64,000 bases of DNA from IMG/VR virus record IMGVR_UViG_3300027865_000007; one strand, 5' to 3'. The notes under the pieces were generated by a model. It did no database searches. It worked only from the letters and a program-made list of their open reading frames with translations, and was not told where the DNA came from. Source of the stretch: a virus. Every line of letters begins with the position of its first letter. Within the stretch, counting starts at the first letter, position 1. A program made the position numbers and the translations under genes. Positions 11,306 through 43,187 of the stretch are shown here, one piece after another.

Positions 11306-11589
11306 AGCACTTCAACTCACAGAGACGCTGGGGTTTCATAGCGCAGGATGACAAACAAGTCCTATTCTTTTTCTCTCGGCGAAATATCTTCGGCGGAAGA
11401 GGCATGAAAGACCTTTGCCAAGGGGATCTTGTCGAGTTCATCCCCTATGCCGGCGGGCCAGAGGAGCTACCGGAGGCAAAAGCAGTCACGCTTATTGAAG
11501 GCTCATTCGTAGATAGATTCGTAAGACTTCTAAACAGTAAATGGGCAGAACCCAAAGCAAAGGAATTCAAGGAGATAGAATGTTCATAG
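11272..11589 (+). CDS. cold-shock domain protein
   Basis: GRVEHFNSQRRWGFIAQDD ... VLFFFS resembles the CspA RNP1/RNP2 region. Confidence 0.55.
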   Translation: MAREGFERGRVEHFNSQRRWGFIAQDDKQVLFFFSRRNIFGGRGMKDLCQGDLVEFIPYAGGPEELPEAKAVTLIEGSFVDRFVRLLNSKWAEPKAKEFKEIECS

Positions 11590-11891
11590 TAGAGTACACC
11601 CAGCACCGCCCCGACGATGATATGCTCACTAGAATTACTCACCACTTCGCGGCAAGTAAGAAGGACCTTCCATCCCTCATCGAGAAAATCGCCGAGACGG
11701 CGGGAGAAGAGGTAAACATCGTCCTAAACAGCTGCACATACGACGAGCTCAACACTAGCTTGAGCCGCGAGGGGCACCTCGATATGTCCCACCCGCTGAG
11801 CGACGTCCTAAAGATCAGGGTCTCCCTAATCCCCACGCAAAAAGAGACCCCAGCAAAGAAAGAGGAAGCAGATGAAGGAAGCGAAGACTGA
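11580..11891 (+). CDS. hypothetical protein
   Basis: ATG at 11580 with AAGGAG RBS 5 nt upstream; acidic C-terminus. Confidence 0.45.
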   Translation: MFIVEYTQHRPDDDMLTRITHHFAASKKDLPSLIEKIAETAGEEVNIVLNSCTYDELNTSLSREGHLDMSHPLSDVLKIRVSLIPTQKETPAKKEEADEGSED

Positions 11892-13732: not shown

Positions 13733-14080
13733 ATGGAAAAGCCAGCCACCGACGTACTCGGGAAGCATCTAGAGACCAGGGACTATGTCCTATTCCCAAC
13801 AGGGACAGGGTATATCCTAGGGGTTGTAGCCGAGGTCAATCCTACCCAGCACCCGCGGCATGGAACTGTTAGGGTCATCCATCCGTACAAAGGCTACTCT
13901 CTCCACATAGGCAAGGATACAATCACCCGCTGGGGTAGCAAATGGAAGCGAAACCATACCCTAGTCAAGCTAACACAGCACGATATTGAATGTCCTGATC
14001 TTAGGATAGAGAACAAGCTAGACAATCTAGTAGACCTCCTCGAAGAGAAGAGGGTATGGCTAAAGGATAACCCGGCATAG
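13733..14080 (+). CDS. hypothetical protein (paralogue of previous gene)
   Basis: MEKPATDVLGKHLETRDYVL vs MQKPPTDALGAVIELGDYVL. Confidence 0.5.
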   Translation: MEKPATDVLGKHLETRDYVLFPTGTGYILGVVAEVNPTQHPRHGTVRVIHPYKGYSLHIGKDTITRWGSKWKRNHTLVKLTQHDIECPDLRIENKLDNLVDLLEEKRVWLKDNPA

Positions 14081-14145
14081 CTCAGCTGGCCAGAGCCGGC
14101 GTTTCTAATGCGCCGTGTGCCCGGGTTCGAATCCTGGTGCCGGGT
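14071..14145 (+). tRNA. tRNA with anticodon CUA (amber suppressor-type), C1-G72, short variable loop; no encoded CCA
   Basis: Manual cloverleaf: acceptor CCCGGCA/TGCCGGG; U8 A9; D-stem GCTC/GAGC; anticodon stem GGCGU/GCGCC; loop UUCUAAU (anticodon 14105-14107 = CUA); T-arm CCGGG-TTCGAAT-CCTGG. Confidence 0.7.
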
Positions 14146-14167
14146 CTAGAAGAAAACGGAGAGAAAG

Positions 14168-17165: not shown

Positions 17166-17523
17166 CACAGTCAATGGAAGAAGGATTGCCGTTACTGCCT
17201 CTTTCTGTGAGGACGATCTCGCGGCTCTAGAAGAGTGTGTAGAGGAGTGTACCAAGGCCGCCGCGGCCTTGTTCAGACCGGACAAACTTGATGGAGACCC
17301 TGAAGGTCCAAGCGTCGACGTCACAGGTATCCTTGAGGGAGACCACGACATAGACGACATCGAGAAGCAGTTTAGGATCATCGCGCAGGCGGTTCCAAGC
17401 CTAGAGGCAAAGGCCCACATCGGAGCCCAATGGGAAAGCAAATGGTGCGTTGCCACGCTGTCCCTCCAAGATGGAATTGTTACCGTTGGTTCCCCTGAGA
17501 CAGACGAGGTCTACCCCAACTAG
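17155..17523 (+). CDS. hypothetical acidic protein
   Basis: ATG at 17155; Asp/Glu-rich. Confidence 0.4.
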   Translation: MARSTVNGRRIAVTASFCEDDLAALEECVEECTKAAAALFRPDKLDGDPEGPSVDVTGILEGDHDIDDIEKQFRIIAQAVPSLEAKAHIGAQWESKWCVATLSLQDGIVTVGSPETDEVYPN

Positions 17524-17533
17524 GAGAAGGACA

Positions 17534-26086: not shown

Positions 26087-29000
26087 ATGGCAGCCTTTCA
26101 TCCCCCCGAGTCCACGACTGATCTTCTACATAATAGGTACTACCAGAAGGGCGAAGACTGGGAAGGGCTGTGCAGGCGAGTTGCTCACACGGCAGCCCAG
26201 GTAGAGCCCAAGAGTAAGAGAGCCGAGTGGGAGGGCAAGTTCTTCGAACTTCTCCACTCCGCCGAGGGCCTTCCTAATACCCCAGCCCTAGTAAACCTAG
26301 GTGCCAACCACGCTGGGTCAGTAGCAGCCTGCTTCTCTTTCAGACCAGACGACCATATGACCTCAATTATGGAGGTCTCTCGACTGGCTGCTATGACTCT
26401 AAAGTTTGGTGGCGGGGCAGGCTTCGAGTTATCCCTCCTTAGGCCTGCCGGATCTGCAGTTCAGTCCACCCACAAGCAGGCAATGGGCCCTGTTGGCGTG
26501 ATGAAGTTCTACAATTCTGTAGGCGATATGATCACCCAGGCAGGCATCCGTAAGGCTGCCCTCATAGCTATCCTTCGGATCGACCACCCCGATGTAATTC
26601 ACTTTATGCAGGCCAAGTCTGAGGACAAGCAGCTAGCCAACTTCAACATCTCTGTATCCATCACCGATGGGTTTATGAAGAAGCTCTCTAGCACCCCTGA
26701 GAGGCCCCACATCGCTCGTTTCGGTGGCAAGCAGTACTATATCCTTACCGATGGTACCGCCGTTCTGAAGGCCGAAAGAGGCTCAAAAGAGGTCCTCTCA
26801 GTAGAAGATACTTGGAACCTCCTCTGTGAGGGCGGCTCGCTGAATGGGGATCCAGGCATCTACTTTGTAGACCACGCCAACAAGAACAATCCTCTGCTGG
26901 AGACTCCTGGAGACACAGAGAGCCCCTACTATCTCCATGGGACAAACCCATGTGTAACAGGAGACACTAGACTCCATACCCACCTAGGCCTTGTAAAGGC
27001 CAAAGACCTCTGTCAAAGAGGAGATACTCTAGAAGTTACGGTCGACAAGAGGGCCCTCGACCTGCAGGAGAAGGGTACAGAGAAACGACCGGCACTGCCG
27101 ATGGTTATGACAACCAAGGCCGCCCATATATTTCGGCTTAGGACAAAGGAAGGATACAACATCAAGGCCTCCCCCTGGCACGAATTTTACACTACGCGAG
27201 GAAAGTTGAGACTCGAGGAGGTCGAAGTAGGAGACAAGATTCTCATTCAGTCCGGCGAAGGCATATTCGGCCCAGCAGGAACGAAAGAACTCGGGACTAT
27301 CATCGGCCTGATAGCCGGTGACGGCTGTATATCAGATCGAGGGAAAGGCAAGCACGCTGCCGAGATAGACCTCTGGGGCAAGGACAAACCCCTAGCCGAA
27401 AGGCTAGTCAGGTGGGTAAATAACCTTATCGCAGGCTTGTCCCACAATGGTAGAGAGTACAAAGTTAGTGCCGTAAGGCCTAAAGGGACAGACAAAGTGG
27501 TCATCAGATCGACCATCCTGGCACGAGTACTTGCAGATTACTGGTTCACAAAAGAGACAAAGTACGACGTCCCAGAGGTCATATGGTCGGGTACTAGACC
27601 ATGTGTAGTAGGCTACCTACGAGGACTGTTCAGTGCAGACGGCACCGTAAACGCCAGTAGCGGAGGAAATAGCTGTTCCATTCGCCTATCCTCCAGTAAA
27701 CCCCTACTACTAGAGCAGGTCCAGATCCTGCTATCCAACTTCGGAATCTTCTCGAGAATCTACAAGCGCCGCGAAGCTGGAGAGCGTATGCTACCTGACG
27801 GTAAGGGCGGCAAGAAGGTTTACCAGTGCAACGCAGATTACGAGCTGATCATCGACGGAGAATCACGCGGGATCTTTATGGAAAAGGTTGGCTTCCTGCA
27901 GGACTATAAGAATAGCCGATACACGGAGTGGGCCAAAGGCAAGCTACTCCGCAAAACGCAGCAATTCACGGCAGAAGTGTCATCCTTCGAGTACATGGGA
28001 ACCGAGGAAGTCTACGATACCACACAGGAAGACCACAACACTGTGATCTTCAACGGCTTCGTCACAGGACAATGTGGAGAACTGCCTTTAGAGGCTAACG
28101 GGGCCTGCGTCCTCGGATGTGTAGACCTAGCAAAGTTTGTAGTAGAAGAAGAGTTAGACACCGAGCGTCTAGCCACTATATTCAGAACGATGTGTCGGCT
28201 GCTCGAGAATATGACAGACATATCCGAGTGGCCAGACGAGGTAATAAAAGAGACTGTCCTGCGGACAAGAAGAATTGGCGTTGGAGTTATGGGCTTTGCC
28301 TCTATGCTAGATAAGCTTGGCATTATGTATGGCTCTGACGAGTGCATTAAGATGATTGATATCGTCGGCTCCCTAAGAGAGACCGCTTGTGCCGAGGAGT
28401 CCAAGCAGCTAGCTAAGGAGAGAGGTAGCTATCCAGCCTCCATAAATGGCGAGAAGCATAGGAATGTTGCGAGGACTGTAATCGCCCCGACTGGGACACG
28501 GGCAATGATTGCCAATACCTCCTGGGGCATTGAACCTCATCTTTACTGGGCTTTCGAAGAGAGAAGGAATGACCAGAAGAGATTCAGATTCCTTCCGGCC
28601 GTTCACGAATACCTAGACGAAGATACTCTAGCAGACCTCAAAGAGAAGGCGGACGGAAACCTAGAACATCTGAACAATATGATTCAGAGCCAGCTACCAC
28701 TCCATATGACCACGGCCAGGGATCTTTCCCCCGACGCACACCTAAGAGTTGTAGCTCAATGGCAGAGGTACACAGACTCTGCCGTATCAAAGTGCCTATC
28801 CGAAGGCACTTTAGTTCACACGAACAAAGGTATTCTTCCGATAGAGCAGCTCGGGGGTGCTTTCACCCCAGACAAAGTCGCCAAACCTCTCGAAGGACTG
28901 AAGGTTATAGACAAAGACGGGATTCCAAGGAAGGTAACTGCCCATTATTGCGCAGGAAAACTTCCCACAAGACGAATCAGGCTTTCGAACGGATCCACTC

Positions 29001-30619
29001 TCTCAGGCGCTCGCGAGACACATCGGGTTCTCACCCCAAGCGGATGGAAGAGACTCAAAGACCTTCGAGTAGGAGAGGCTGTTTTTGTTAGAGACCGCCA
29101 CCTGTCCCTCGGTAGTCTTGGAAAGAAACCCATCGACTCCGTAGAGATAAGCAGAAACTGCAAGCCAATCACAATCCCGGAAGAGATGTCCGTAGATCTA
29201 GCCTGTTGGCTGGGGATGGTCGCCGCAGACGGATACGTAATAACCAAAACGGGGAGCTCCTGGGTCCAGCTTACGGAAAAGAACCCCAAGGTAGGGAAGA
29301 GATTTGATACCCTGACACAGAAGATTTTTGGGAGGACCCCAAAAGTCAAAGTGGATGGTAGAAACGGAGTGATTTTGCATACAATACACTCCACCCCCTT
29401 AGCCCACTGGACAGAAGCGTTGATTGGAGACTCAGCAAGGACAAAGCACGCCCCGAAGCAAATTCTACACGGGTCTAAGGAAGAGAAGATTTCCTTCGCG
29501 GAGGGATTAACCCTTGATGGATATGTCCTCCCGCAGGGGTCAGGAGGCCTCGTCATCTATGGGGGAATTTCCAAAAGGCTAAGAGACGAAACCGCCGAGA
29601 TCTTGAGAAGTCTCGGTCTCCCGCAGGTAAGAAAGCGCGAAAAGAAAGTTCACGGGAGGAACTATAACTGCTACATAGTAGAGGTTAGGGAAGATCTTCA
29701 AGAGCTGATAGATCCAATCGAAAAGCACAAGAGCGTTTCCCCAAGTAGGAAAAGGTCTCTTGTGGGAATCGATCCGTCTGCGGTGGAGAACCTAAAGATT
29801 TCGTGCCTAGACCCTCGCTATAGAGGGTGGCTGTCTCTGCGAGCTAGGAAGAGAGATTACTGCTGGTCGACCACTGCGAGATCTCTAGAGCTCCAAGTTC
29901 TTGGTCGTGTGGAAAAGGTTACCCTTATTGAAGACCCAAGAGAGACCCAAATGTTCGACATCCAGGTCGAAGGAAATCATAGCTACCTTATCGACGGAAT
30001 CGTCTCCCACAACACAATCGTAGCTCCCTTCGAAGTTCTAACTCCTGAGAAGGTTAGCGAGATCTACCGCTTTGCTTGGGAGAGCAAACTCAAGGGTCTT
30101 ACGGTCTACCCAGAAGGCTCCCGTCAGGGAGAACCAATGAGTATTGGCAGGAAGAAGAAGACCCACGCTGGCCGACCGAAGAAGCTCCCAAGCGAGACTT
30201 ACGAAGAAGAGGTAATGATTGGCAGAGACCTTGTACAGGCCTTCTGCTTCGTAGGATTGAATCCCAAGAATCTAAAGGAGCCGGTCGAGGTTTTCCTAAA
30301 GCATCCCCACGTTGAGGATCCAACAGCCATTCAGTTCATCGATGTTCTCACCAGAATGATCTCCCTTGCTCTCAGACATAGACGGTGTCCGTCCTGCGGA
30401 GAAGAGGCCGTTCCGCTAGGTGAGATAATCAAACAACTCAGGAAGACCGATGGTCAGTCCCTCTATTCTGTCCCGGGCATCTTCGTAAAAGCGTTAGGCG
30501 AGTACCTAGGGCCAGGAGAATCAGTAGGGAAATGCCCCGACCACAAGTGCAAGGGCGAGCTAACTATAATCGAAGGCTGCCAGGTCTGTATGTCCTGTAA
30601 GTGGCGAGCCTGCGGCTAA
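26087..30619 (+). CDS. nrdJ: class II (adenosylcobalamin-dependent) ribonucleotide reductase interrupted by two inteins
   Basis: N-terminal LPNTPALVNLG...SVAACFSF...GGGAGFELSLLRP matches NrdJ. The NPCGE motif is split by insertion 1; the SK|T(INLP)-type motif by insertion 2. Extein is about 729 aa after removing both. Confidence 0.9.
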   Translation: MAAFHPPESTTDLLHNRYYQKGEDWEGLCRRVAHTAAQVEPKSKRAEWEGKFFELLHSAEGLPNTPALVNLGANHAGSVAACFSFRPDDHMTSIMEVSRLAAMTLKFGGGAGFELSLLRPAGSAVQSTHKQAMGPVGVMKFYNSVGDMITQAGIRKAALIAILRIDHPDVIHFMQAKSEDKQLANFNISVSITDGFMKKLSSTPERPHIARFGGKQYYILTDGTAVLKAERGSKEVLSVEDTWNLLCEGGSLNGDPGIYFVDHANKNNPLLETPGDTESPYYLHGTNPCVTGDTRLHTHLGLVKAKDLCQRGDTLEVTVDKRALDLQEKGTEKRPALPMVMTTKAAHIFRLRTKEGYNIKASPWHEFYTTRGKLRLEEVEVGDKILIQSGEGIFGPAGTKELGTIIGLIAGDGCISDRGKGKHAAEIDLWGKDKPLAERLVRWVNNLIAGLSHNGREYKVSAVRPKGTDKVVIRSTILARVLADYWFTKETKYDVPEVIWSGTRPCVVGYLRGLFSADGTVNASSGGNSCSIRLSSSKPLLLEQVQILLSNFGIFSRIYKRREAGERMLPDGKGGKKVYQCNADYELIIDGESRGIFMEKVGFLQDYKNSRYTEWAKGKLLRKTQQFTAEVSSFEYMGTEEVYDTTQEDHNTVIFNGFVTGQCGELPLEANGACVLGCVDLAKFVVEEELDTERLATIFRTMCRLLENMTDISEWPDEVIKETVLRTRRIGVGVMGFASMLDKLGIMYGSDECIKMIDIVGSLRETACAEESKQLAKERGSYPASINGEKHRNVARTVIAPTGTRAMIANTSWGIEPHLYWAFEERRNDQKRFRFLPAVHEYLDEDTLADLKEKADGNLEHLNNMIQSQLPLHMTTARDLSPDAHLRVVAQWQRYTDSAVSKCLSEGTLVHTNKGILPIEQLGGAFTPDKVAKPLEGLKVIDKDGIPRKVTAHYCAGKLPTRRIRLSNGSTLSGARETHRVLTPSGWKRLKDLRVGEAVFVRDRHLSLGSLGKKPIDSVEISRNCKPITIPEEMSVDLACWLGMVAADGYVITKTGSSWVQLTEKNPKVGKRFDTLTQKIFGRTPKVKVDGRNGVILHTIHSTPLAHWTEALIGDSARTKHAPKQILHGSKEEKISFAEGLTLDGYVLPQGSGGLVIYGGISKRLRDETAEILRSLGLPQVRKREKKVHGRNYNCYIVEVREDLQELIDPIEKHKSVSPSRKRSLVGIDPSAVENLKISCLDPRYRGWLSLRARKRDYCWSTTARSLELQVLGRVEKVTLIEDPRETQMFDIQVEGNHSYLIDGIVSHNTIVAPFEVLTPEKVSEIYRFAWESKLKGLTVYPEGSRQGEPMSIGRKKKTHAGRPKKLPSETYEEEVMIGRDLVQAFCFVGLNPKNLKEPVEVFLKHPHVEDPTAIQFIDVLTRMISLALRHRRCPSCGEEAVPLGEIIKQLRKTDGQSLYSVPGIFVKALGEYLGPGESVGKCPDHKCKGELTIIEGCQVCMSCKWRACG
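26951..28072 (+). mobile_element. intein 1 in nrdJ, inserted within the NP|CGE active-site motif, with LAGLIDADG-like homing endonuclease region
   Basis: Starts CVTGDTRLHT right after HGTNP. Contains IIGLIAGDGCISD (LAGLIDADG-like). Extein resumes CGELPL. C-terminal intein residues would be ...NGFVTGQ (Gln-terminal); alternative end at DHN (28039) cannot be excluded. Confidence 0.65.
28793..30013 (+). mobile_element. intein 2 in nrdJ with LAGLIDADG-like endonuclease region
   Basis: Begins CLSEGTLVHT after DSAVSK, ends ...YLIDGIVSHN followed by Thr (+1). Contains WLGMVAADGYVI motif. Flanks reconstitute SAVSK|TIVAP. Confidence 0.8.
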
Positions 30620-37755: not shown

Positions 37756-38382
37756 ATGAAGTTTTGCTTGATTTCGGATACCCACGGACACCACCGCAAG
37801 ATAGATATTCCTAAGGACTGCGATGCCATCCTCTTCGCGGGGGATATGACTAAAAGAGGAGAGCCCGCCCTCCTAGCAGACTTCGCCGCGTGGACAGAGG
37901 AGCTAGGAAAGCCATTCGTAGCTATAGCGGGGAACCACGACCTCTCCCTAGACAAGGACACCTCCCTAGAGCCACTGCTAGACAACCTTTGCTACCTGCG
38001 GGATTCCTCTGTCGAGTTCGACGGAATAAAGATCTATGGCTCTCCTATGGCAAAGAAGATTGGAGTCTGGGCATTCGGCTATCAGACAGATGGAGAAGCT
38101 AAGGAGTACTGGGATCTCATCCCAGACGACACCGACATCCTGATTACCCACGGCCCGCCGTTAGGCATGCTTGACAAGCTATACTACGGAGGGGAAAGGG
38201 TAGGCTGCCCAGTCCTACTAAAGGCCATCGACCGAGTGAAACCAAAGCTCCATCTATTCGGCCACATACATGAGAGATGGGGAATTATCAAGAGCCATCC
38301 AACGATCTTTGTAAACGCATCCATCTGCACTTGGCCAGGAGTGGCACCAACAAACAAGCCATTCGTGCTAAACATAGGATAG
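37756..38382 (+). CDS. calcineurin-like metallophosphoesterase
   Basis: ISDTHGH, GDMTKRG, GNHD, GHIHE motifs. Confidence 0.65.
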   Translation: MKFCLISDTHGHHRKIDIPKDCDAILFAGDMTKRGEPALLADFAAWTEELGKPFVAIAGNHDLSLDKDTSLEPLLDNLCYLRDSSVEFDGIKIYGSPMAKKIGVWAFGYQTDGEAKEYWDLIPDDTDILITHGPPLGMLDKLYYGGERVGCPVLLKAIDRVKPKLHLFGHIHERWGIIKSHPTIFVNASICTWPGVAPTNKPFVLNIG

Positions 38383-39010: not shown

Positions 39011-39394
39011 ATGCCGACTAAGCTCTACGAACCTTCGTATGTCAACCAGCCGGCAGATGGATCTTACCACGGTCTAGAGAAGGTAATGACTCAGTACTCT
39101 AACGGTACCGGTTTTAGTAAAGAAGACTTCGTCAACCCGCCAACCGATGGAGAGACCCAAAAGCTAACGGCTATGATCACGAAGATCTTCGAAGATCATA
39201 GCAAGGCGATCAATAAGGCGATCACCGACGAGCTCAAAGACTATTCCATCTCTGCCAAGAAGGCTTCGAAGCCGGCAGTAGTAGATCAATCAGGCAATGG
39301 CAACCACGGTGTAATTACCCCAGAAACCAAAAGCCCGCGGACTAGAACTCAGAGAGTCAAAGACCGGATGAAAGAGAAGTTCTTCACCGAATGA
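39011..39394 (+). CDS. hypothetical protein
   Basis: 127-aa ORF. Confidence 0.45.
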   Translation: MPTKLYEPSYVNQPADGSYHGLEKVMTQYSNGTGFSKEDFVNPPTDGETQKLTAMITKIFEDHSKAINKAITDELKDYSISAKKASKPAVVDQSGNGNHGVITPETKSPRTRTQRVKDRMKEKFFTE

Positions 39395-40062
39395 AACCTA
39401 TCTTCATCGAAGCAACGACACTAAGCGACGCATGGTTTCAAGCCCTCGATGCCGTAATGGATCACGGTAGAGTATGGACTGTAGATCACGGTTCCTATAT
39501 AGGACAGGATAGATGGGAGCTAGACTACGTTACGATTCACGTCAAAGACCCGGGAGCAAGACCTCTAATACCAGAGATCCCACCCGGACTAGCAATCCCG
39601 CCGCCGGTGAGCGACGAGTACGTTGAGGATTATCTTCCATACCTGATGACCGACCATAGGGAGCCAGGAGAGCAATACACCTATGGCGAACGCCTGAAGC
39701 CTCAAATGGAAGAGATCATAAGAAGGTATAAGAAGCACGGGTTTGGTTCCAATCAGGAGTGCATTGCCATAGCTAAACCAGAGGACATTATGTTAGATGA
39801 TCCTCCGTGCCTCAGACAGATAGACACCAGGATCTACAAAGACGAATGTCGTGAGGGCCCCGCCACCCTCCACTTCGTCTGCTACTTCAGGAGCTGGGAT
39901 CTATGGGGTGGATTCCCCGCGAACCTAGCAGGGATAAGGCTCGTCCAGGAATATATGGCTCTAGAGATTGGAGTCGAGGCAGGCGAGATGATTGTTGCAT
40001 CTAAAGGACTACATATCTACGACCATGCCTGGGATGTAGCTAAGATCAGAACTGCGAGATAG
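39391..40062 (+). CDS. thymidylate synthase (ThyA)-fold protein, short divergent form (TS or pyrimidine hydroxymethylase candidate)
   Basis: DPPCLRQID (PCH-like nucleophile region) and YFRSWDLWGGFPANLAGIRLVQEYMA (YQRSxD..G.PFNIASY-like). Confidence 0.6.
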   Translation: MKPIFIEATTLSDAWFQALDAVMDHGRVWTVDHGSYIGQDRWELDYVTIHVKDPGARPLIPEIPPGLAIPPPVSDEYVEDYLPYLMTDHREPGEQYTYGERLKPQMEEIIRRYKKHGFGSNQECIAIAKPEDIMLDDPPCLRQIDTRIYKDECREGPATLHFVCYFRSWDLWGGFPANLAGIRLVQEYMALEIGVEAGEMIVASKGLHIYDHAWDVAKIRTAR

Positions 40063-40064
40063 CA

Positions 40065-40253
40065 ATGAGAGAACAGTCAACAAGCCCACAGGAAGGACAA
40101 TGGTACTTCCGCCGGACAACTAAGGAGAAATTCTACGTTGATTTGGTGGACGGCAAGATTACCTACTGCCGGAGACAGGACGGAACCTATCTATGTGTGA
40201 GCACCCAGGAATTTGATGGCGGCTTCTCAAAAGTCGAAACACCCTCGCTGTAA
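40065..40253 (+). CDS. hypothetical protein
   Basis: 62-aa ORF. Confidence 0.3.
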   Translation: MREQSTSPQEGQWYFRRTTKEKFYVDLVDGKITYCRRQDGTYLCVSTQEFDGGFSKVETPSL

Positions 40254-40419
40254 GGGGTGCGGAACAGCCAGGCCACTAGAGGTTTTCTACGATACTCCTG
40301 GAGGCGACATATACCTCTGTTCTAACTGCATCTCAGAGCTACTCTACCGAATGCTAGACGGCTACTACGACGACGTAGGAGAAGTCTACGAGGAGTGGAT
40401 ATATGACAAGAAAGTATAG
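40213..40419 (+). CDS. small zinc-ribbon protein
   Basis: CKGCG ... CSNC. Confidence 0.35.
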   Translation: MMAASQKSKHPRCKGCGTARPLEVFYDTPGGDIYLCSNCISELLYRMLDGYYDDVGEVYEEWIYDKKV

Positions 40420-40744
40420 GGTCGAGTGGCAGGTCGAGTTCGACAGAGACGTCCTCTGCATCAAGATCGTCAGAGAAGACAGCGACAGTAAGAGAGGCAT
40501 TATCCTTCGCGTCCCCGACTCCGCTCTAATAGAGACCGACGAAGACGAGCAGTACGGCAAGCAGACTATCAAATGCTGGGACTACGATGGAGAAGGAGAG
40601 GAAGAGACTGTCATCGGCGGGGATGCAGATATTCTCAAGGACGGCAATATGGAACCTCCAGATCTTGATGGGCTATTCAAGTGGGAGGCACCGAAATCGG
40701 GGATGGAAGAGCTGCTCGCCCATATCCTGAGCAATAAAAAGTAG
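40403..40744 (+). CDS. hypothetical acidic protein
   Basis: 113-aa ORF. Confidence 0.4.
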   Translation: MTRKYRVEWQVEFDRDVLCIKIVREDSDSKRGIILRVPDSALIETDEDEQYGKQTIKCWDYDGEGEEETVIGGDADILKDGNMEPPDLDGLFKWEAPKSGMEELLAHILSNKK

Positions 40745-40777
40745 CAGTAGTTCTCTTTAGTGCTACAGTAATACAAG

Positions 40778-40862
40778 GGAAGGGTGACCGAGTCAGGCCG
40801 ATGGTGCACGCCTGAAGCGTGTGGTCCGAAAGGGCCCGTAGGTTCAAATCCTACTCCTTCCG
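40778..40862 (+). tRNA. class II (long variable arm) serine-type tRNA whose anticodon reads GAA (Phe)
   Basis: Acceptor GGAAGGG/UCCUUCC (as in tRNA-Ser), G73; D-arm ACCG-AGTCAGGCCGA-TGGT; anticodon arm CACGC-CUGAAGC-GUGUG (anticodon 40814-40816 GAA); variable hairpin with GAAA loop; T-arm GTAGG-TTCAAAT-CCTAC. Aligns base-for-base with the tRNA-Ser(GCU) at 42203. Confidence 0.6.
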
Positions 40863-40876
40863 CCGAGAGAAGGTAA

Positions 40877-41239
40877 ATGAAGCATCTGCTAGGAATCCTA
40901 CTTGCTCTAATCATCTCATTCCCAATCGTTTCCTATGCAGAACTAGAACCTCCCCTACCAGAGAGGTTCACCACAATGACCCTTGCCGGTGCCTCAACTT
41001 TTTCTCTAGGCATTGGGCTACTAACTACAGCCCTACTAACTACACAGTGGGAACCAATCGAAGCCTCGGCAGAGATCCTTGGTACAACCTTCATAGGGGT
41101 ACTAGAACCAGACAACCCCGCCGGGCTATGGGTTGTATACGGAATAGCAGGGGCAGCAATCTTAGCTGGGATCATTATTATCGTGATAGACTCCATCTAT
41201 CGGGCACTTAGAAGATGCCGGCGTAGCTCCAATGATTAG
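40877..41239 (+). CDS. membrane protein with signal peptide
   Basis: Signal peptide then two TM segments. Confidence 0.45.
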   Translation: MKHLLGILLALIISFPIVSYAELEPPLPERFTTMTLAGASTFSLGIGLLTTALLTTQWEPIEASAEILGTTFIGVLEPDNPAGLWVVYGIAGAAILAGIIIIVIDSIYRALRRCRRSSND

Positions 41240-41301
41240 AGCGAGGCTTTCGTAAAGCTTAGGTGTTGGTTTGACTCCAACCGCCGGCTCCAGGAGGAAC
41301 A

Positions 41302-41637
41302 ATGCTATCAGTGAAGTTCACCGAGAAAGACTGCGAATATCTCAACACATATGATGCTTTCTCTGCAGACTGGTATGAGGAACTAGCTAGCAAATGTTCC
41401 TGCGCACCCAGAGAGCTGAGAACGCTCGGCCTATTCGACCTAATCGATAGGCTAGACGAGGAGAAAGATTTTCTCGTAGTCCTGCAGTTCAACTCGCTAC
41501 CCGTTAGGCCCTGGTTCGAACCTGAAGGAGGATATGCATCAGTTGGCACCACCAAAACAACCGTCGATAGTCCCGCCGCAACCAAAGAAGAAGCCAAAGA
41601 GAAAGAAGCCCCGAAAGCCAAAGAGGAAAGGCAATGA
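41302..41637 (+). CDS. hypothetical protein
   Basis: 111-aa ORF with KE-rich tail. Confidence 0.4.
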   Translation: MLSVKFTEKDCEYLNTYDAFSADWYEELASKCSCAPRELRTLGLFDLIDRLDEEKDFLVVLQFNSLPVRPWFEPEGGYASVGTTKTTVDSPAATKEEAKEKEAPKAKEERQ

Positions 41638-41665
41638 GAGACAATAAAAGCTGCCTCAACTGCAA

Positions 41666-41902
41666 GTGGTGGCCAGGGAACTGGCCCGACACTATCTTAT
41701 ATCCGGATGGTATGGGGTTGAGCAGGACGAGCTCGTAGAGATCCTGGTGATACACGAGCCCCACGTGAATGTTAGGAGCAACGACGGCAGAGACCTCTGC
41801 TTGCCAAAAAGCATACTGATATCCGTAGCTGAGGAGAAGACTCCCCCAGCACCAAAGAAGAAGAAAGAGGCAAAGCCTGGCCCCAATGGGTTCTATATTT
41901 AG
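41666..41902 (+). CDS. hypothetical protein
   Basis: 78-aa ORF. Confidence 0.35.
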   Translation: MVARELARHYLISGWYGVEQDELVEILVIHEPHVNVRSNDGRDLCLPKSILISVAEEKTPPAPKKKKEAKPGPNGFYI

Positions 41903-41906
41903 ATAA

Positions 41907-41983
41907 GCCCGAGTCGCCTAGCTGGTATGGCGTCAGGTTTCCAACCTGAAATAAGATCGGTTCGAGTCCGTTCTCGGGTTCCA
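41907..41983 (+). tRNA. tRNA-Gly (anticodon UCC), CCA encoded
   Basis: Acceptor GCCCGAG/CUCGGGU (G1-U72), D-arm GCC-AGCUGGUA-GGC, anticodon arm UCAGG-UUUCCAA-CCUGA (anticodon 41940-41942), T-loop TTCGAGT (one U-U mismatch in stem), CCA at 41981-41983. Confidence 0.7.
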
Positions 41984-41995
41984 AGGAGAAGAGAG

Positions 41996-42196
41996 ATGTA
42001 TACACTAGAAGAAGCACGAGAAGCCAAGGAAGAGTTCAAGAAGCTTTACCCCGGCATCACCGTCGGGGTCGGGGCCTTGCCCGAGCCTCATCTTGCAGTT
42101 AGGGTTCAAAGTAAGTCAGACCTGCTGAGGATGCCTGCCGAGGTACTAGGCGTTACGGTGCAAGCTATTCTTACCGATGTACCAAGGGCATACTAA
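41996..42196 (+). CDS. hypothetical protein
   Basis: ATG 41996 with AAGGAG RBS right after the tRNA. Confidence 0.35.
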   Translation: MYTLEEAREAKEEFKKLYPGITVGVGALPEPHLAVRVQSKSDLLRMPAEVLGVTVQAILTDVPRAY

Positions 42197-42202
42197 GCCC
42201 AT

Positions 42203-42291
42203 AGAGAGGTGGCCGAGTCAGGCTTATGGCACCGTCCTGCTAAGGCGGAGGCCCCGAAAGGGGTCCGTGAGTTCGAATCTCACCCTCTCTG
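42203..42291 (+). tRNA. tRNA-Ser (anticodon GCU), class II
   Basis: Acceptor AGAGAGG/CCUCUCU, G73; D-arm GCCG-AGTCAGGCTTA-TGGC; anticodon arm CCGUC-CUGCUAA-GGCGG (anticodon 42239-42241); long variable hairpin GGCCCC-GAAA-GGGGUCC; T-arm GTGAG-TTCGAAT-CTCAC. Confidence 0.8.
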
Positions 42292-42303
42292 CTAGGAGTA
42301 AAG

Positions 42304-42843
42304 ATGGTTAGAGCAGCAACGGCAATTATAGCCCTACTCTGTCTAAGTAGTTGCGGCCAGAGATGCTACGACAATAGCTATGCCAACATCACAGATTACA
42401 ACGTTAGTCCTAATGCCACTACGCCCGGCGGAATAGAAGTAGACACCTCCGATCTGCCCGCCAACCTTATAGAAATAGACAGGCAGACAGAAGCACTAGA
42501 AGCCTGCCTCAAGATGACAGTAGATAGAGACTGTCTCACAGTCTTGATTGCTCCGGACTGGTATATCTCTGAGTGCTCGGGTCAGCAGCTCTTCCCCTGT
42601 AGGATCAACCCAGACATCTGTAGAGACAAGATGCGGAGAGACGGAATGGCGGAGGAAGAGATAGAGGAGACTCTTCTAGTCTGTCCCTGTGCCTGCCGGG
42701 CCACCATACAAGACGAGAATGTGGTAGTTGCCACGCCTAACCTCTTGCTCTATAGAGCAGAGCTCGCTAGAATGCTCACTGGAATCAACAACCCGTGGAT
42801 ACCAGGCATCAGCGAGTGTCTCCTAGATCACTCAGAGGAATAA
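42304..42843 (+). CDS. lipoprotein (Cys-rich)
   Basis: Signal peptide with lipobox LSSC. Confidence 0.5.
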   Translation: MVRAATAIIALLCLSSCGQRCYDNSYANITDYNVSPNATTPGGIEVDTSDLPANLIEIDRQTEALEACLKMTVDRDCLTVLIAPDWYISECSGQQLFPCRINPDICRDKMRRDGMAEEEIEETLLVCPCACRATIQDENVVVATPNLLLYRAELARMLTGINNPWIPGISECLLDHSEE

Positions 42844-43187
42844 CGAAAAAGGGAATCCTGCTCGCCGTAATGGCAATTGCTTTATCAGCTTGCTCAGAGG
42901 GTGGAACGCTACCCATTCACCTCCAGAACGACGAGGGACTCTACATACAGGTTGCTGACTCAACCAGGCTAGAGTCTGGGACGCCGATGGTTAAGGTGCG
43001 TCTATCGAATGACGCCCCGATCCCCCAGGTAGCAGATCTAACCTGTACCTTCAGGTCAGGAGAGTACGCCCAGGAAGCTTTCTACCGCATCGAGATGGGG
43101 CCGCGGGAATGGGAGTACGTTTACGTAATGGGGCCCAGAATAGGATTTGGTGTTCGTGCTCAGTGCGAAGTGGAGAGGGGAAGATAA
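42795..43187 (+). CDS. possible lipoprotein (start uncertain)
   Basis: Hydrophobic stretch with lipobox-like LSAC; tracked ATG overlaps the upstream gene by 49 nt. Confidence 0.35.
   Translation: MDTRHQRVSPRSLRGITKKGILLAVMAIALSACSEGGTLPIHLQNDEGLYIQVADSTRLESGTPMVKVRLSNDAPIPQVADLTCTFRSGEYAQEAFYRIEMGPREWEYVYVMGPRIGFGVRAQCEVERGR

Follow-up and report, generated by a model that had tools for sequence, protein, structure and literature searches.

A serine-type tRNA gene of an uncultured phage, with a shortened anticodon arm and a Phe(GAA) anticodon that is most likely a drawing artefact

The 64,000-nucleotide stretch of DNA held in IMG/VR as record IMGVR_UViG_3300027865_000007 (the window) comes from a large uncultured phage and carries, at positions 40778–40862 of the plus strand, a tRNA gene that combines the body of a tRNA-Ser with a string of bases readable as the phenylalanine anticodon GAA. 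A preliminary description of this locus proposed that the tRNA would insert serine at phenylalanine codons or, failing that, be inactive. If true, a phage tRNA inserting Ser at Phe codons would stand out as a weapon or a means of recoding, and the locus therefore raises the question of which anticodon, if any, the folded molecule presents. The GAA anticodon reported by gene finders is most likely an artefact of drawing, produced by programs that force a canonical arm of five base pairs (bp) and seven loop nucleotides (nt) by drawing in U44 and a G of the variable stem. On balance, we favour a descendant of a UCN-reading tRNA-Ser that has lost two nucleotides from its anticodon arm and persists as a loop-truncated, non-decoding copy.

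The element at 40778–40862 is a real tRNA gene, far beyond chance. It is 85 nt long through the discriminator base G73 and was found by ARAGORN (40778–40864, 87 nt, 'tRNA-Phe(gaa)'), by Rfam RF00005 (40778–40862, model positions 1–71, 39.8 bits against a threshold of 29, expectation value (E) of 3e-6) and by R1, a covariance model constructed from 29 phage tRNA-Ser sequences with mixed anticodons, in which the variable arm is modelled explicitly. Two other assemblies in ENA and a third in JGI (L002, L003 and L004) contain this sequence at 100% identity; a sequencing or assembly error was rejected as its source, the four assemblies being identical. The acceptor stem is formed by GGAAGGG (40778–40784) and UCCUUCC (40855–40861), and all seven of its pairs are standard in the R1 alignment, including a G7–U66 wobble. 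The D arm, ACC-GAGUCAGGCCGAU-GGU (40787–40805), has a 3-bp stem containing C11–G24 and retains A14, G15, G18 and G19. It is followed by G26 (40806), which the R1 alignment places opposite U44. U44, the variable arm GGUCC-GAAA-GGGCC and C48 occupy 40822–40837, and the T arm, GUAGG-UUCAAAU-CCUAC, extends over 40838–40854, giving the acceptor and T stems lengths of 7 and 5 bp, respectively. After G73, at 40862, the sequence continues CCG, so that CCA is incompletely encoded.

The body of the 40778 tRNA can be assigned from its sequence to the serine-type class II tRNAs, in agreement with the preliminary description, which had pointed to the acceptor strand GGAAGGG, G73 and the long variable hairpin. 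R1 scored it at 73.1 bits (E ~1e-17), compared with 85.3 bits for the window's own tRNA-Ser(GCU) and 30–32 bits for its own Thr and Gly tRNAs. Most of the 74 sequences matched by the serine model scored 72–93 bits, and the 40778 tRNA lies at the low end of this range because two loop positions are deleted. When the anticodon loop was masked, its top eight neighbours among 90 phage tRNAs were all tRNA-Ser. A pattern based on its D-loop and T-loop retrieved nine sequences (one in IMG/VR and eight in JGI metagenome contigs), every one a tRNA-Ser, and annotated matches in cultured phages were mostly tRNA-Ser among the best. The 25 modelled pairs are all standard in the 40778 tRNA, and 23 of them vary on both sides across 11 aligned sequences. 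The D-arm likeness to the tRNA-Ser(GCU) at 42203, described earlier as near identity, holds at 17 of 21 positions, and the D arm together with U8, G9 and G26 forms a 22-nt stretch identical to a tRNA-Ser(GCU) of another contig (L006).

Of the determinants expected in such a molecule, A3–U70 and C11–G24 belong to the E. coli serine identity set; both are present, as are G1–C72, G2–C71 and the discriminator G73, in the sequence and in the Rfam and R1 alignments. A tRNA-Phe, by comparison, has a class I body with a short variable loop and the discriminator A73; the 40778 tRNA has G73 and a hairpin-forming variable region of 14–16 nt. Bacterial serine identity resides in the variable arm, G73 and the first acceptor pairs and does not depend on the anticodon (PMC9976931), which agrees with the earlier statement that seryl-tRNA synthetase (SerRS) ignores the anticodon and reads the variable arm and G73. 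Descent from tRNA-Leu(YAA) or tRNA-Tyr through a mutation at position 34 was rejected on the discriminator (G73, not A73), on the misfit of the variable-arm flanks (1 + 2 unpaired bases in tRNA-Leu and 1 + 3 in tRNA-Tyr) and on the nearest neighbours, all of them tRNA-Ser.

The anticodon arm is where the molecule departs from its family. A canonical tRNA has 19 nt from N26 to N44 (1 + 5 + 7 + 5 + 1). In the 40778 tRNA this stretch, GCACGCCUGAAGCGUGU, has 17 nt and ends directly before the perfect variable hairpin, and it can be drawn in three ways that share the 5′ strand CACGC (40807–40811), also found in E. coli serW. In drawing A, that of ARAGORN and Rfam, CACGC pairs with GUGUG (40819–40823) around a loop CUGAAGC (40812–40818) that shows GAA followed by G37; there is no N44, the variable stem is flanked by 0 + 2 unpaired bases and the predicted energy is −27.2 kcal/mol. 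Drawing B pairs CACGC with GCGUG (40817–40821) around the 5-nt loop CUGAA (40812–40816), keeping the G26–U44 pair and leaving the variable stem with a single unpaired base at either flank, at −33.8 kcal/mol. Drawing C′ is drawing B with the closing C–G pair open, which gives a 4-bp stem, a loop CCUGAAG (anticodon UGA, C33, A37) and the same variable arm, at −30.2 kcal/mol. Drawing A attains 5 bp and 7 nt only at the expense of U44 and of the G that begins the variable stem.

Alignment, flank statistics and folding all point to drawing B. R1 aligns the molecule as G CACGC CUG--AA GCGUG U GGUCC..GGGCC C, with a mean posterior of 0.98. The preliminary description had foreseen that covariance models might support a shifted register with a serine anticodon such as UGA; this is essentially what was found, the serine-specific model aligning another register whose opened form gives UGA. 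The loop is 7 nt long in 72 of the 74 sequences matched by the serine model, the exceptions being the 40778 tRNA and a tRNA of another viral contig (L015). The variable stem is flanked by one unpaired base on each side in 54 of 66 distinct tRNA-Ser, as in drawings B and C′, whereas the 0 + 2 layout of drawing A occurs in none of the 66. G26 with U44 is the commonest combination at these positions (31 of 74 sequences). When folding was constrained to keep the acceptor, D and T stems, the pairs of drawing B had probabilities of 0.94–1.00 (0.99 for the closing C–G pair and 0.98 for the first variable-stem pair), compared with ~1e-4 for those of drawing A. Folding of the N26..N48 segment by itself assigns the gene-finder register a probability of 7.5e-5; the corresponding values are a median of 0.966 for 66 tRNA-Ser, 0.93 for serW and 0.91–0.97 for three genuine class II GAA tRNAs. 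This segment folding was used in place of unconstrained folding of whole tRNAs, which was dropped as a control because it misfolds 14% of normal tRNAs. The GAA anticodon is thus confirmed as what ARAGORN and Rfam draw, and is not confirmed as the anticodon of the folded molecule.

The sequence of the arm relates it to UCN-reading tRNA-Ser. That of E. coli serW is G CACGC CUGGAAA GUGUG U, and the 40778 arm corresponds to it with GG reduced to G, AAA to AA, and U40 replaced by C, which turns G30–U40 into G30–C40. The anticodon stem matches serW at ten of ten positions in drawing A and nine of ten in drawing B, this near-equality being due to the repetitive 3′ strand GCGUGUG. Judged by these alignments, CUGAA is what is left of a CUNGAAA-type loop after the deletion of two of its positions.

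A 66-kb contig (L126), reached through a ThyA homologue with 73% identity, appears from its gene content to be the only true relative found. It is syntenic with the window, sharing 16 proteins at 35–73% identity, and its tRNA island comprises Ser(AGA), Gly, Thr, Ser(UGA), Ser(GCU) and Trp. In each of the three tRNA-Ser the loop has 7 nt and carries a serine anticodon (AGA, UGA and GCU), and GAA is absent; conservation of GAA among homologous phages, which the preliminary description had proposed to examine, is thus contradicted by the one related phage available. The first tRNA after ThyA in L126, in the position of the 40778 tRNA, is a tRNA-Ser(AGA) at 11562–11652 of the plus strand, with the arm A CGCGC CUAGAAA GCGCG C. 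Its anticodon stem is the drawing-B stem of the 40778 tRNA with a compensatory change of pair 28–42 from G–C to A–U. A34, as in this AGA anticodon, is rare in bacterial-type tRNAs apart from tRNA-Arg(ACG). The variable arm of the L126 tRNA-Ser(GCU), U GGUCC..GGGCC C, is identical to that of the 40778 tRNA, and the window's tRNA-Ser(GCU) at 42203 is the orthologue of L126 13892–13978, with the same acceptor and T stems. Like the UCN-reading tRNA-Ser (serW and the L126 Ser(AGA) and Ser(UGA)), the 40778 tRNA has a 7/5 cloverleaf, G73, G1–C72, G2–C71, C11–G24, G26–U44, a 5-bp anticodon stem and a variable arm flanked by one unpaired base per side. Unlike serW and the L126 Ser(AGA), whose loops have 7 nt (CUGGAAA and CUAGAAA), it has a loop of 5 nt and shows a serine anticodon only if the closing pair opens.

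Other searches for orthologues were negative. A pattern based on the acceptor stem and D arm retrieved from IMG/VR one unrelated tRNA-Ser(CGA), and none of the nine tRNA-Ser matched by the D-loop/T-loop pattern in IMG/VR and the JGI metagenomes is an orthologue. A CTGAAG class II pattern gave 44 matches in GTDB genomes, with no class II tRNA bearing GAA among them, and blastn against cultured phages and E. coli genomes gave partial tRNA-Ser matches at most. The AAA-ATPase of the window found no relative in IMG/VR, and the 113-amino-acid open reading frame (ORF) upstream matched itself only. Nine more contigs reached through ThyA and DUF1257 homologues, together with a profile scan of IMG/VR for the PHP protein, led either to bacterial contigs or to distant phages in which no tRNA island is present. 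No close relatives of the window phage were found among cultured phages or in IMG/VR.

In the favoured reading the serine body is kept, with its complete acceptor stem, D arm and T arm, G26–U44, the CACGC/GCGUG stem and the variable arm, the anticodon stem closing a 5-nt CUGAA loop. The transcript is probably made together with its neighbours and processed, because the end of the molecule that concerns RNase P and CCA addition is intact, and charging with serine is possible because SerRS ignores the anticodon. A 5-nt loop cannot form the U-turn in which an anticodon is presented. The molecule would then be unable to present a normal anticodon on the ribosome and would act as a decoding-dead or very weak copy of a tRNA-Ser; were the closing C–G pair to open, the loop would become CCUGAAG with the serine anticodon UGA, and any residual decoding would be harmless. 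The inactive molecule that the preliminary description offered as its fallback is compatible with the evidence.

Several observations weigh against this reading. Both general-purpose tools select the GAA register, which has U33 and G26 and a stem identical to that of serW throughout. The training sequences of R1 were gathered with patterns derived from the 40778 tRNA itself, and UGA loops predominate in the loop columns of the model; it is nonetheless the stems and variable arm that determine the register. The nearest-neighbour energies leave out tertiary contacts, modifications and protein binding. Orthology with the L126 Ser(AGA) is based on position and stem similarity only, and a single relative, together with copies of the 40778 tRNA that are all 100% identical, says little about how old the deletion is or whether it is under selection. 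Finally, every helix is perfectly paired, the conserved tertiary nucleotides are all present and the gene is fitted tightly between two ORFs, so that it looks maintained rather than decaying.

One alternative, which we regard as unlikely, is a working UCN-reading tRNA-Ser, in which the closing C–G pair opens to leave a 4-bp stem stacked on G26–U44 and a CCUGAAG loop (UGA, C33, A37), and which, charged by SerRS, reads UCA and UCG and possibly all four UCN codons. This loop agrees at six of seven positions with CCUGAAA, the loop seen in 41 phage tRNA-Ser(UGA) among the 74 aligned sequences, and its C33 also occurs in tRNA-Ser picked up outside the CCUGAAA pattern (L007, L011, L001 and L183). The UGA reading retains the serine-type variable arm and the G26–U44 pair and is 3 kcal/mol better than the GAA drawing; the window uses 38 UCN codons per 1000 and holds no other UCN-reading tRNA, whereas L126 carries two. 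Against it, C32–G38 is a Watson–Crick pair that closes the loop with the probability of 0.99 given above, and opening it costs 3.6 kcal/mol. The loop would also have G38 instead of the A38 of the family, and, given the specificity of MiaA, this substitution would weaken recognition for the i6A37 modification. Bacterial tRNAs described as having a 4-bp anticodon stem merely leave a terminal pair unpaired and keep the full nucleotide count (PMC13092985), unlike the 40778 arm, which truly lacks two nucleotides and has 4 bp only if its closing pair opens.

A somewhat more doubtful alternative is that the gene is retained as a non-decoding mimic of tRNA-Ser, for example a decoy or sponge that draws off host defence enzymes directed at tRNA-Ser, such as VapC-type anticodon nucleases or MenT/AbiEii-type nucleotidyltransferases, its body intact for recognition and its loop unusable or uncleavable. 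The cloverleaf is perfect save for the loop, the gene is compactly embedded, and the window encodes proteins of the RNA-repair type (an RNA ligase-like protein, an RlaP nucleotidyltransferase and a phosphoesterase) that hint at conflict over tRNAs. Phage tRNAs with changes in the anticodon loop escape host tRNA nucleases (PMC10264068, PMC11464382, PMC11555353), altered-loop tRNAs thus countering tRNA-targeting defences, and MenT3 is reported to prefer tRNA-Ser (PMC11541572). The 40778 tRNA resembles these molecules in being phage-encoded and in having its change concentrated in the anticodon loop, but the known counter-defence tRNAs keep a 7-nt loop and still decode, whereas its arm lacks two nucleotides. 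The unrelated viral contig L015 has another serine-type tRNA whose loop is 5 nt long, and this speaks for such a role, although it was found with a CTGAAG-biased pattern; with one relative and zero variation, maintenance by selection is no more than a conjecture. That the shortening is adaptive, yielding either a decoy or sponge recognizable by SerRS or a switch between the UGA and GAA registers operated by a binding partner, is a speculative extension to which we give similarly little weight; the L015 tRNA and the serine-type GAA tRNAs described below would then form part of a wider, undescribed repertoire.

Insertion of serine at UUC and UUU, as originally proposed, is the least probable of these alternatives. 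It requires the canonical CUGAAGC loop to display GAA on a molecule charged by SerRS or partly by phenylalanyl-tRNA synthetase (PheRS). In its favour are the ARAGORN and RF00005 drawing with U33 and G26, a CACGC/GUGUG stem the same as that of serW, the presence of G37 in at least one phage tRNA-Phe (L007, loop UUGAAGG) and the existence of unambiguous serine-type GAA tRNAs in other contigs (L080, L082, L114 and L089), by which the concept is not absurd. The A36–U1 codon pair is, however, weak without A37 and its bulky modification; the register has a probability of ~1e-4, the serine-family covariance model picks another, and G73 and the long variable arm oppose charging by PheRS. Drawing A also lacks N44 and has 0 + 2 flanks, weakening the feature read by SerRS (PMC9976931). 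Mistranslation is therefore unsupported: the fold that shows GAA dismantles the serine variable-arm geometry and the 26–44 pair, and the fold that keeps them lacks GAA.

The codon usage of the phage also bears on this proposal. TTY codons are read as Phe, conserved Phe residues of the phage RecA aligning with those of E. coli RecA, and a reassignment of UUY to Ser was rejected because Phe is what these conserved positions encode. Per 1000 codons the window has 33 TTY codons with this normal meaning, so that insertion of Ser there would harm the phage's own proteins, and L126 lacks GAA. The 40778 tRNA is thus probably not a Ser-for-Phe mistranslator. Mistranslating anticodon variants of tRNA-Ser do exist: a human tRNA-Ser-AGA-2-3 G35A variant is reported to insert Ser at Phe codons (PMC12993449, PMC9956149) and an engineered tRNA-Ser(UGG) is a further example (PMC6827378). 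The 40778 tRNA resembles them in pairing a serine body with a string readable as a Phe anticodon. Those variants carry a single-base change in a normal 7-nt loop, whereas its Phe reading needs a register shift that costs N44 and one variable-stem pair.

Two further origins were rejected on structure and context. Allo-tRNAs, reportedly described by Mukai et al. in 2017 as serylated tRNAs with 8/4 or 9/3 acceptor/T stems, do not match its 7/5 stems, and a phage att-site remnant is at odds with a full-length gene within a co-directional array with no integrase nearby.

Class II tRNAs of genuine serine type whose anticodon is unambiguously GAA were found at L080 5137–5223 (plus strand), L082 6795–6882 (minus), L114 2308–2395 (minus) and L089 11813–11901 (plus). 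All four have a 5-bp stem, a CUGAAAA loop and 1 + 1 variable-arm flanks, and score 68–74 bits with R1. In L080 and L082, both low-GC, prophage-like contigs, the tRNA lies antisense between terL and the portal gene and is followed by a terminator-like hairpin; the L114 tRNA has the same sequence as that of L082, and the hairpin, the only surrounding feature checked there, is present. A compensatory change from U–A to C–G distinguishes the anticodon stems of L080 and L082, and the top two acceptor pairs of these tRNAs are G–G mismatches. The group shares with the 40778 tRNA serine-type D and variable arms, and L080, L082 and L114 also share the acceptor strand GGAAGGG with the U66 wobble. In this group the loop is CUGAAAA and the canonical stem dominates, unlike the 40778 tRNA, which differs in loop sequence and register; the identity between them, ~0.5–0.6, is no higher than to any tRNA-Ser, so that they are not relatives. 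A survey of Latilactobacillus curvatus prophages lists seven 'tRNA-Phe(GAA)' genes without a codon-usage rationale (PMC10688831), possibly of the same kind.

Other departures from the canonical pattern were seen in the phage contigs. Two class II tRNAs of 84–88 nt, called Gln(CUG) by ARAGORN and scoring 70–73 bits with the serine model, lie at L014 4764–4851 (minus) and L015 4641–4724 (minus), each adjoining a normal tRNA-Gln(CUG). The loop is CUCUGAA (7 nt) in L014, and the aligned loop of the L015 tRNA is UCUGA (5 nt). The 40778 tRNA resembles the degenerate or off-size-loop tRNAs of phage arrays, such as that of L015 and the ARAGORN 'tRNA-???' at L014 3670–3740, in having an intact cloverleaf with a loop of non-canonical length. 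U33 is near-universal in tRNAs, yet C33 is frequent in phage tRNA-Ser, in the loops CCUGAAA, CCGGAAA, CCCGAAA, CCGCUAA and UCGCUAA, and no description of this was found in the literature. CCUGAAA accounts for 41 of the 74 aligned sequences, a count inflated by the search pattern; by a rough tally, C33 is present in ~6 of 19 tRNA-Ser picked up without that pattern. Examples are L088 6735–6824, L084 11155–11244 (minus), L007 4440–4530, L011 1466–1556, L183 996–1080 (minus), L001 1317–1409 (minus), L109 and L117. Class II tRNAs with a CUA anticodon lie at L079 1519–1611 and L103 54–140; the latter, part of a phage tRNA array, scores 83 bits with the serine model, has 1 + 1 variable-arm flanks and is a candidate serine-inserting amber suppressor. 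Three over-long ARAGORN calls with an extra arm, L095 1859–1945 (Asn(GUU), 87 nt), L007 6685–6778 (Arg(ACG), 94 nt) and L013 8640–8720 (Met(CAU), 81 nt), may be class II bodies with non-cognate anticodons, or misfolds.

The window has a G+C content of ~51% and a coding density of 91% in the standard code, with all long ORFs on the plus strand. Its products include a protein with Major Vault Protein shoulder and repeat domains (44–1933), the RNA ligase-like protein (2028–3404; E = 4e-4, below Pfam's threshold), the RlaP 'RNA repair pathway' nucleotidyltransferase (17450–18682), a 1510-amino-acid ribonucleotide reductase split by intein and LAGLIDADG segments (26087–30619) and the phosphoesterase (37756–38382), besides a split PolIII alpha, RecA, DNA ligase, ThyA and an AAA ATPase. 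ARAGORN called five tRNA genes. Four form an island downstream of ThyA, each wedged between short ORFs: the 40778 tRNA, Thr(CGU) at 41217–41289, Gly(UCC) at 41907–41980 and the bona fide paralogue tRNA-Ser(GCU) at 42203–42291 (plus strand; ARAGORN, Rfam and R1). The ORF preceding the 40778 tRNA ends 33 nt before it and the next begins 14 nt after it. Within ~12–17 nt 3′ of each island tRNA come a Shine–Dalgarno-like motif and the codon at which the following ORF starts (40862–40877, 41289–41302, 41980–41997 and 42291–42304). CCA is encoded by the Thr and Gly genes and is not encoded by the two serine-type genes. A scan of 39300–43000 for promoters and terminators gave no signal above chance, and the island tRNAs are presumably cut out of polycistronic transcripts. 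The fifth gene, at 14071–14146 of the plus strand, encodes a 76-nt class I tRNA with the anticodon CUA (ARAGORN label 'Pyl'; loop UUCUAAU, C1–G72, discriminator U), a potential amber suppressor. Recoding of TAG was rejected for the early and replication genes that the window contains, the late genes lying outside it: TAG ends 44 of 98 long stop-to-stop frames, at the coding density given above.

The locus serves as a practical caution where viral tRNA genes are annotated automatically: a class II tRNA can be given a spurious anticodon when the model is generic and takes no account of the variable arm. The recurrent oddities of phage tRNA-Ser encountered here, namely C33, true GAA and CUA anticodons and 5-nt loops, merit a systematic survey.

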